Shown piece by piece: positions 47,063 to 47,867 of a stretch of 64,000 nucleotides of DNA. The stretch's first letter is position 1, and every line of letters starts with the position of its first letter. The notes beneath the pieces were generated by a model, which saw only the letters and a program-made list of their open reading frames with translations, was not told the origin of the DNA and did no database searches. This DNA comes from Escherichia coli. GTDB taxonomy: Bacteria > Pseudomonadota > Gammaproteobacteria > Enterobacterales > Enterobacteriaceae. The stretch lies in the NCBI RefSeq assembly GCF_017348835.2, contig NZ_CP071375.1; one strand, written 5' to 3'. The translations under genes and the position numbers were made by a program.

Positions 47063-47517
47063 AGCAGCAACCTCATTGTAATCAAGCGAGGCGCTGAGCG
47101 TACTCGGCTATAGAAAAACTAACTTGCAAAAATCGCTCATTTTTCATTTATCAGGCGAAAGTAGCCTCTGTTCACTCAGAAACAATCACTCCCGGTAAGT
47201 CATACCTGTTTCATCGATACATTTAAGTGATTATTACTAATGAAACAATAACATAACGGGCTTACGGTCGGTGCTCATAAAGGCAACAATCAATTAACTT
47301 TGATAAAAATATGTTATGTAAAATAGCAACAAATTGGCTACTCTAATCAATTGGTATTATAAAAAGTTGATTGGGCGGTTCTGTTAAATAAAACACTGGT
47401 TTTTTATCTATACCTTTTCATTGTAATAATTGTGTTGCATAAATATTTCACAATAAATTAACAATAAAATCACCAATGATCTATGGTTTATACATAATTA
47501 ACATATTTGGTTGTTTT

Positions 47518-47531
47518 TGATATAAATCAAT
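47518..47531 (+). promoter_or_regulatory. FNR-consensus site in the cydA upstream regulatory region
   Basis: TTGATATAAATCAA, a perfect match to TTGAT-N4-ATCAA, ~335 bp upstream of the cydA ATG in the ~800-bp AT-rich control region. Confidence 0.6.
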
Positions 47532-47867
47532 TTTTAATTCTTGAAAAAAATCTGCAAAACACGATAAATTGTCGTAGATCAAATTGGTGAGATCGTGACA
47601 ATTTCGCTATAAATTGATCACTGTCGAAAAATGCAAATTTGCTCAATAAAAACCTGTTTATTGTAAGGATTTTGCGGCGTAATATAATTACGGGATCAAT
47701 TTGGTTTATTCATTAACATATTTGTAACTTTTTTATCATTGTCTTTTCCTCTTTTGATGAAATGGCAACGATAGAGGCGAGCAAATAATTTTGTATTGGG
47801 GCATGCGTGTGACCCTTTCTAACGGGGTTCACTCTCGGAGTCTTCATGCGATGAGCAAGGAGTCATG

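Follow-up and report, generated by a model that had tools for sequence, protein, structure and literature searches.

FNR sites and predicted ArcA boxes in the divergent AT-rich spacer between cydA and an orphan gene pair of Escherichia coli

The interval and its neighbourhood

The stretch of Escherichia coli DNA considered here (64 kb, called the window below) matches strain PE164 at 100% identity and O157:H7 EDL933 at about 99%. Its annotated order runs from sucD through a LysR regulator, cobO and a methylaspartate-pathway island (class I fumarase, symporter, DUF4387, AtuA-like, methylaspartate ammonia-lyase, glmE, glmL and glmS) to two hypothetical genes encoding proteins of 140 and 314 amino acids, a spacer and cydA. 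Downstream, the gene order is cydA-cydB-cydX-ybgE-ybgC-tolQRAB-pal. The identical arrangement is found in O157:H7 Sakai and EDL933. The spacer and the genes that frame it are:

45614..46036, minus strand: 140-aa orphan gene (ECs_0766 in Sakai, EDL933_RS03960)
46118..47062, minus strand: 314-aa orphan gene (ECs_0767 in Sakai, EDL933_RS03965), with its ATG at 47062
47063..47864: divergent AT-rich intergenic region between the 314-aa orphan and cydA; cydABX control region, non-K-12 allele
47868..49436, plus strand: cydA from the RefSeq start; the reading frame opens also at ATG 47865

The length of the spacer is 802 bp when counted to the first ATG (47865), and 805 bp to the start annotated in RefSeq (47868). 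Directly 3' of it lie cydA, cydB and cydX, as for a control region of the K-12 type, and the CydA protein has the same accession, WP_000884361.1, in all four E. coli strains compared. Between 47200 and 47800 the GC content drops to 24-31%, compared with about 51% for the genes on either side and 33-43% for the two hypothetical genes. The original prediction of an AT-rich divergent control region of some 800 bp is thus borne out, and the spacer contains promoters for both transcription units, as described below.

FNR sites, transcription starts and ArcA boxes upstream of cydA

The cydAB control region has been studied in K-12, where it comprises promoters P1-P5, two Fnr sites (-53.5 and -1.5 relative to P1) and three ArcA regions, and where ArcA relieves repression by H-NS (Cotter et al. 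1997 and Govantes et al. 2000, cited in PMC3688515, PMC3798270 and PMC3708157). ArcA-P is reported to increase cydAB expression in K-12 mainly via antagonism of H-NS. In the window, two FNR sites were identified:

47517..47530: FNR site 1, TTGATATAAATCAA, a perfect TTGAT-N4-ATCAA, orthologous to K-12 TTGATATTTATCAA, which is centred at -53.5 of P1
47569..47582: FNR site 2, ttgtcgtagatcaa / TTGTCGTAGATCAA, with two mismatches, orthologous to K-12 TTGTTCTCGATCAA, which is centred at -1.5 of P1

An exact FNR consensus had been predicted at 47518-47531 and a near-consensus site at 47570-47583. Both are present, the first with its true coordinates one base to the left, and the second, recognised by its K-12 orthologue, at 47569-47582. 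The pairing with the K-12 sites comes from an alignment of the window with K-12 and 55989.

One option to be considered is that these FNR-like sequences are chance matches in AT-rich DNA. Site 2, in which both mismatches fall in the left half-site, is by itself not above chance, with four FNR-like sites of at most two mismatches seen in the spacer and 1.4 expected, and we accept it because it is orthologous to K-12 TTGTTCTCGATCAA, not because of its match score. TTGATATAAATCAA, on the other hand, is the sole TTGAT-N4-ATCAA match in the entire window, where 0.11 are expected, and the expectation for a perfect consensus in the 802-bp spacer is 0.003 (5000 first-order Markov simulations of the AT-rich sequence). 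Furthermore, the centres of the two sites, 47523.5 and 47575.5, are 52 bp apart, as in K-12, where we computed the positions -53.5 and -1.5 from the 288-nt 5'UTR of P1, and where an FNR ChIP peak has been reported at cydAB with the site placed at -53.5. The half-sites are invariant among three E. coli alleles, Escherichia sp. MOD1-EC7003 and E. albertii, the changes being mostly confined to the N4 spacers. For practical purposes, this conservation and orthology refute a chance origin, to which we assign virtually no probability. Judged by their sequences and positions, the two FNR sites are the known cydAB operators, in keeping with the established oxygen-responsive control of cydAB. It should be added that control of cydAB by FNR, ArcA and H-NS is already textbook knowledge, and this core finding adds little to it.

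The transcription starts were taken from published Cappable-seq data on EDL933, covering four media at two growth phases (exponential and stationary), with aerobic shaking throughout (eight conditions). As the spacer differs from that of EDL933 at 6 of 805 positions, without indels, the EDL933 coordinates can be transferred directly to the window. The positions relevant to cydA are:

47577, plus strand: K-12 P1-equivalent position, inferred from the K-12 5'UTR of 288 nt plus net 3 nt of indels
47620, plus strand: main cydA start (EDL933 855493), seen in 8/8 conditions, with the -10 element TATAAA at 47608-47613; equals the start of the 245-nt UTR in K-12
47690, plus strand: second cydA start (EDL933 855563), seen in 6/8 conditions; equals the start of the 174-nt UTR in K-12
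47795, plus strand: minor cydA start (EDL933 855668), seen in 1/8 conditions, stationary LB only

The 5'UTRs in EDL933 are 248, 178 and 73 nt, respectively, and two of the three starts correspond to K-12, for which a published comparison table gives lengths of 288, 256, 245, 174 and 90 nt. By the start at 47690 there is a TTGTAA-N16-TATAAT match at 47661-47688. The P1-equivalent start at 47577 is absent from the EDL933 Cappable-seq data, in which all cultures were aerated. Between 47795 and the ATG, all alleles and species compared have exactly the same sequence (100% identity), and this invariant 73-nt leader folds no better than its shuffles (z = 0.08).

ArcA boxes were predicted with a weight matrix made from 112 published boxes, with the three cydA boxes left out. 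At a threshold of at least 13 bits, the spacer contains 7 boxes, to be compared with 0.26 expected. They are located as follows:

47283..47317: distal predicted cluster, consisting of a minus-strand box, AAGTTAATTGATTGTTGC (14 bits), and a plus-strand box, TTGATAAAAATATGTTAT (17.6 bits), with the boxes at 47283-47300 and 47300-47317
47421..47504: middle predicted cluster, corresponding to K-12 'cydA2', with boxes at 47421-47438 (plus), 47447-47464 (minus, 20.9 bits), 47458-47475 (minus) and 47487-47504 (minus)
47713..47730, minus strand: proximal predicted box AAGTTACAAATATGTTAA (20.5 bits), corresponding to K-12 'cydA3'

Relative to the cydA ATG, the predicted clusters are at about -590/-568, -447 to -381, and -155, the distal one lying at the same distance from cydA as the K-12 ArcA region 'cydA1'. 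They correspond to the three ArcA ChIP-seq regions published for K-12 cydA, and the same weight matrix finds the three positional clusters again in K-12, ATCC 11775, MOD1 and E. albertii. The repeats found in the region are mostly ArcA-box-like motifs again.

The likeness to the K-12 system is thus considerable: the operon is the same, both FNR sites are orthologous and have the 52-bp spacing, the promoters that give the 245-nt and 174-nt UTRs have identical -10 elements, three predicted ArcA-box clusters are found at the same distances from the ATG in an AT-rich tract, and the final 73 nt before the ATG are identical. By analogy, several sigma-70 promoters would drive cydABX in the window allele. 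FNR would bind both operators anaerobically, over and just upstream of the P1-equivalent start, and thereby damp cydAB, while ArcA-P, acting at the three clusters in the AT-rich, H-NS-prone tract, would lift cydAB mainly by displacing H-NS, as in K-12.

The orphan gene pair and its promoter

We now turn to the other side of the spacer. The 140-aa gene is located 81 bp downstream of the 314-aa gene and is probably co-transcribed with it. Searches with the two proteins gave sub-threshold noise only in Pfam, NCBIfam, PADLOC and PHROGs, and no match in a PDB profile search. Homologues outside Escherichia were found neither by a word-indexed search of 5.8 billion proteins nor by a HMMER scan of 1.84 billion representatives; two further matches, in metagenome-assembled genomes assigned to Collinsella and Citrobacter, have 94-95% identity to E. 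coli and appear to be binning contaminants. An AlphaFold2 model of the orphan protein, based on a 4-sequence alignment, has a pLDDT of 43 and is unusable. The locus tags ECs0766/0767 and Z0898/Z0899 occur in no main text of the literature searched.

Within the genus, an intact 314-aa homologue with 65% identity is present in one E. albertii assembly (L006), where it points away from cydA and is separated from it by a collinear spacer of about 802 bp. The cydA gene of this assembly is 98.8% identical to that of the E. albertii type strain, and the assembly has no glutamate-mutase island. Frameshifted copies occupy the same position in the E. albertii type strain and in Escherichia sp. MOD1-EC7003. 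Because of this shared position in E. albertii, the 314-aa gene must predate the split between E. coli and E. albertii. The idea of a cassette dropped beside cydA does not hold for this neighbour, as it sits there in E. albertii too, without the island. Compared with L006, the 314-aa gene keeps its frame without indels over 314 codons, at a dN/dS of 0.36-0.46, the corresponding values being about 0.01 for cydA and about 0.1-0.15 for glmS. The 140-aa gene has a dN/dS of 0.2-0.5, and outside E. coli only remnants of it are found (E. albertii, MOD1). On the strength of these alignments, the 314-aa gene is a real gene, but a weakly constrained, fast-evolving and Escherichia-only one.

The features that may serve its transcription are the following:

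47304, minus strand: start of the 314-aa gene, the sole one among the starts listed (EDL933 855177), giving a 242-nt leader
47311..47340, minus strand: candidate sigma-70 promoter of this start, with -35 TAGCCA (47340..47335), N18, and -10 TAACAT (47316..47311), read by eye
47063..47172, minus strand: conserved 3' part of the leader, with 85-95% identity to E. albertii against 77% for the coding sequence

The start at 47304 is weak and was detected in 2/8 conditions, exponential LB and exponential LB with malate; among the Cappable-seq starts listed, there is no further minus-strand start in EDL933 855000-855499. The candidate promoter is invariant from E. coli to E. albertii, and the block around it, 47273-47352, has 85-100% identity to E. 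albertii. However, the block from about 47283 to 47345 is conserved also in strains of the ATCC 11775 type that have no orphan gene, and its conservation may therefore owe to cydA alone. In strand-specific RNA-seq of EDL933 under 11 conditions, the four old Z tags between glmS (Z0895) and cydA (Z0900) reach 0-12 RPKM, a range quoted jointly for the four tags and not assigned ORF by ORF. The values for cydA in the same experiment are 2-212 RPKM.

The AT-richness and near-silence of the orphan pair suggest silencing of the H-NS type. Like the H-NS-silenced, lineage-specific AT-rich genes of E. coli, the pair has 33-43% GC beside 51%, is nearly silent in the 11 RNA-seq and 8 Cappable-seq conditions, is fast-evolving and lacks homologues in other genera. 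Unlike them, it is not a recent insertion, as it predates the E. coli/E. albertii split. The locus is absent from the supplements of an EHEC H-NS ChIP paper, and is not mentioned in PMC4720273.

Next, we consider whether the FNR sites could act on the orphan as well. FNR activates from about -41.5 (class II) or from -61.5 to -92.5 (class I), and represses by overlapping the promoter. The centres of the two sites are 219.5 and 271.5 bp upstream of the orphan start at 47304, that is, outside these positions, so that direct FNR control of the orphan is not supported. FNR may nevertheless act over a longer range, by bending the DNA or by remodelling H-NS filaments. A more far-reaching alternative is that the FNR sites constitute a shared bidirectional operator, with the 314-aa/140-aa pair being FNR-regulated along with cydA. 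Palindromic FNR sites can indeed work in either direction, the spacer is genuinely shared, and the orphan start appears in aerated exponential cultures only, which is compatible with anaerobic repression by some factor. Apart from the distances just given, this scenario has to face the facts that the same FNR sites and flanks are present, together with cydA, in K-12 and ATCC 11775, both of which lack the 314-aa gene, and that no other minus-strand start is listed for EDL933 between 855000 and 855499. We consider it very improbable.

The original prediction that the hypothetical genes could come under the same oxygen-responsive or AT-rich silencing control as cydA accordingly stands in part. 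Both units do share the spacer, and the AT-rich neighbours are nearly silent. FNR, however, does not fit, with its sites 219.5 and 271.5 bp away. The oxygen-related elements that overlap the promoter of the neighbour are not FNR sites but predicted ArcA boxes.

The boxes in question are those of the distal cluster, which in silico span -13 to +22 of the 314-aa gene start. An ArcA site that overlaps a sigma-70 promoter is the usual geometry of ArcA repression (Park et al. 2013, PMC3798270). A parallel is the sdhC/gltA divergent region (Park et al. 2013, PMC3798270), which likewise is an AT-rich divergent spacer with several ArcA boxes, but in the window both the binding of ArcA and its effect on the minus-strand promoter are predictions. 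Our tentative proposal, which we hold at somewhat less than an even chance, is that the orphan is repressed through the distal ArcA cluster, so that it would be weakly on in aerated growth and off as ArcA-P rises. The confinement of the 47304 start to exponential cultures is weakly consistent with ArcA repression.

Another possibility is that the orphan pair has no dedicated regulation at all. In that case, the 47304 start would represent spurious initiation in H-NS-bound DNA, the promoter block would be kept solely for the sake of cydA, as its distal ArcA site, and the genes would be decaying relics. Such a picture agrees with the start being found in 2/8 conditions and with 0-12 RPKM in 11 conditions, with the 314-aa pseudogenes and the 140-aa remnants in the E. 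albertii type strain and MOD1-EC7003, with the high dN/dS of about 0.4, and with the conservation of the block in ATCC 11775-type strains without the gene. It is more difficult to reconcile with the reading frame, which has exactly 314 codons and no indel between E. coli and E. albertii at 77% DNA identity, with a dN/dS below 1, and which is annotated as intact in all rows sampled from 1134 E. coli genomes. In addition, the leader segment 47063-47172 is better conserved than the coding sequence, and this is hard to attribute to cydA, which is 700-800 bp away. On balance, we find the absence of any dedicated regulation rather unlikely.

We consider it highly probable that cydABX has its native control region in this interval, in an allele other than that of K-12, and that the orphan pair has its own weak promoter, without direct FNR control. 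The divergent pair would then be old, fast-evolving and partly decaying, and transcribed from this promoter in the distal part of the spacer. What the two units would have in common is the distal ArcA cluster, lying across the orphan -10 and start, along with a probable coating by H-NS.

A few other elements on the orphan side were also considered. The conserved leader part 47063..47172 includes a Shine-Dalgarno sequence, GAGG, and a possible anti-SD hairpin. For an alignment of the 242-nt leader, the covariation term is only -0.44 kcal/mol, which is negligible support, and Rfam gives no match at E<=1 over 44900-48000. A sigma-54 promoter or a second proximal promoter in 47063-47172 was sought by eye, with no convincing match. 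A 10-codon upstream ORF on the minus strand, ATGAGCGATTTTTGCAAGTTAGTTTTTCTATAG, was rejected; its frame is kept in all species, but it has no Shine-Dalgarno sequence and its substitutions are non-synonymous. Finally, the inverted repeat I1 (45189-45212 / 47180-47203, 24 nt, 79% complementary) brackets the orphan pair, but since its right arm falls in the least conserved part of the spacer, it is probably due to chance.

Promoter alleles across Escherichia

With the 802-bp spacer as query, matches are obtained in 5425 of 5426 complete E. coli genomes. The sucD-cydA interval is nevertheless variable, with three alternative left flanks among complete genomes. The full-length spacer with the two hypothetical genes is present in about 21% of them (1138 genomes). 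Another 20% or so, of the ATCC 11775 type, have a gene for a TPR protein instead, and have the spacer in common from about 47227 on, at about 91% identity. The mngR-mngA-mngB type (K-12, 55989) accounts for about 59% and shares the sequence only from about 47492 on, this part being 80.5% identical by BLAST and 72% in a multiple alignment.

Compared with K-12, the window allele has 72-80% identity over 47480-47794 and no recognisable homology farther upstream. In K-12, mngB reads towards cydA, whereas the window allele has a divergent gene at this side. The middle and proximal predicted ArcA boxes score 20.9 and 20.5 bits in the window but 12.3 and 14.7 in K-12, the distal boxes are in another sequence context and orientation, and the minor proximal start has a UTR of 73 nt instead of 90 nt.

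Collinearity over the full spacer, on the other hand, extends to E. coli O157:H7, to Escherichia sp. MOD1-EC7003 and to E. albertii. The core promoter, 47480-47794, is 93% identical to E. albertii, to be compared with the 72-80% to K-12, while for the cydA coding sequence the order is reversed, with 94.2% identity to E. albertii and 99.4% to K-12. For this reason, the window type looks like the ancestral Escherichia allele. The K-12-type allele would then be old or imported, and two ancient alleles of the cydAB promoter appear to be maintained in E. coli. That an important promoter has alleles so deeply diverged within one species is of modest interest.

Nearly all mechanistic work on the cydAB promoter concerns the K-12 allele, while about 40% of E. 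coli, O157:H7 and B2 strains included, have an upstream region that differs markedly from it. Cytochrome bd is important in gut colonisation and in virulence. Given this role and the different upstream region, the quantitative oxygen responses established for K-12 may not transfer to those strains. Through the different strengths of the ArcA boxes, the oxygen response of cytochrome bd could differ between lineages, for instance between EHEC and K-12. For ECs_0766/ECs_0767, repression by ArcA and H-NS from the mapped start is a testable hypothesis for this Escherichia-only pair. Two bolder ideas can be formulated, separately from each other, which we regard as unlikely: that the distal ArcA operator of cydAB may at the same time serve as operator for the orphan, with the divergent units responding in opposite directions under oxygen limitation, and that the two ancient cydAB promoter alleles may have lineage-specific oxygen responses.

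As a final observation, the distance between the distal ArcA cluster and cydA is retained in K-12, although the sequence surrounding the cluster there is not recognisably homologous.

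Divergent alleles of the cydA core promoter

The window and K-12 (locus L004) share 72-80% identity in the cydA core promoter (47480-47794), while identity between the window and E. albertii (L006/L012) in the same region is 93%. For the coding sequence of cydA the order is the reverse, with 99.4% identity to K-12 and 94.2% to E. albertii. The divergence from the K-12 promoter ends sharply at ~47795, 73 nt upstream of the cydA ATG. Judged by sequence, there are two deeply diverged core promoter alleles of cydA within E. coli, and the abrupt end of the divergence together with the reversed order of identities is suggestive of a recombination or import that took place long ago in connection with mngRAB.

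The final 73 nt of the cydA leader (47795-47867) are 100% identical across all E. coli alleles, Escherichia sp. MOD1 and E. albertii L006, and the E. albertii type strain carries one base change there, at 47813. This conservation exceeds that of the synonymous sites of cydA. The constraint could reflect an sRNA or translational control site; the predicted folding of the 73 nt is not better than that of shuffled sequences (z = 0.08), and Rfam gave no match there.

Alternative contents between sucD and cydA

The interval between the two genes was compared with loci L002 and L003.

about 33000-47226, sucD-cydA interval

In E. coli this interval is a hotspot of replacement, and its content takes at least three forms: mngR-mngA-mngB in ~59% of the genomes, the methylaspartate/glutamate-mutase island with the two orphan genes in ~21%, and a gene for a TPR protein in ~20%.

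The orphan genes and the adjacent glmS

Several features were recorded in and around the orphan pair, which lies on the same strand as glmS of the island.

47108-47140, minus strand, 10-codon upstream ORF (MSDFCKLVFL*) in the leader of the 314-aa gene
47072-47085, FNR-like sequence CTCATTGTAATCAA with two mismatches, overlapping the ribosome-binding region of the 314-aa gene
45189-45212 and 47180-47203, 24-nt inverted repeat, 79% complementary, flanking both orphan genes on either side
45056-45613, gap of 557 bp between glmS and the 140-aa gene, 25-31% GC, without an annotated gene
44606-45118, minus strand, glmS as mechanical ORF, 170 aa
44606-45055, minus strand, glmS in its RefSeq form, 149 aa, starting at the internal MKKATLVIG

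E. coli, MOD1 and E. albertii all retain the ATG, frame and stop of the upstream ORF. No Shine-Dalgarno sequence precedes it, and the substitutions in it are non-synonymous. The FNR-like sequence is probably meaningless, since 1.4 sites are expected by chance at the two-mismatch level. The inverted repeat is likewise probably fortuitous, because its right arm falls within the least conserved part of the spacer.

The glutamate-mutase operon presumably has its promoter region in this gap. The glmS homologues from Sakai, L007 and MOD1-EC7003, extracted over a region matching the RefSeq length only, likewise have MKKATLVI as their N-terminus.

The 314-aa protein is also encoded, with 94-95% identity to the E. 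coli form, on contigs of two MAGs labelled Collinsella sp. (L010) and Citrobacter sp. (L011); these copies most likely represent E. coli contamination or mis-binning of those species-representative genomes.
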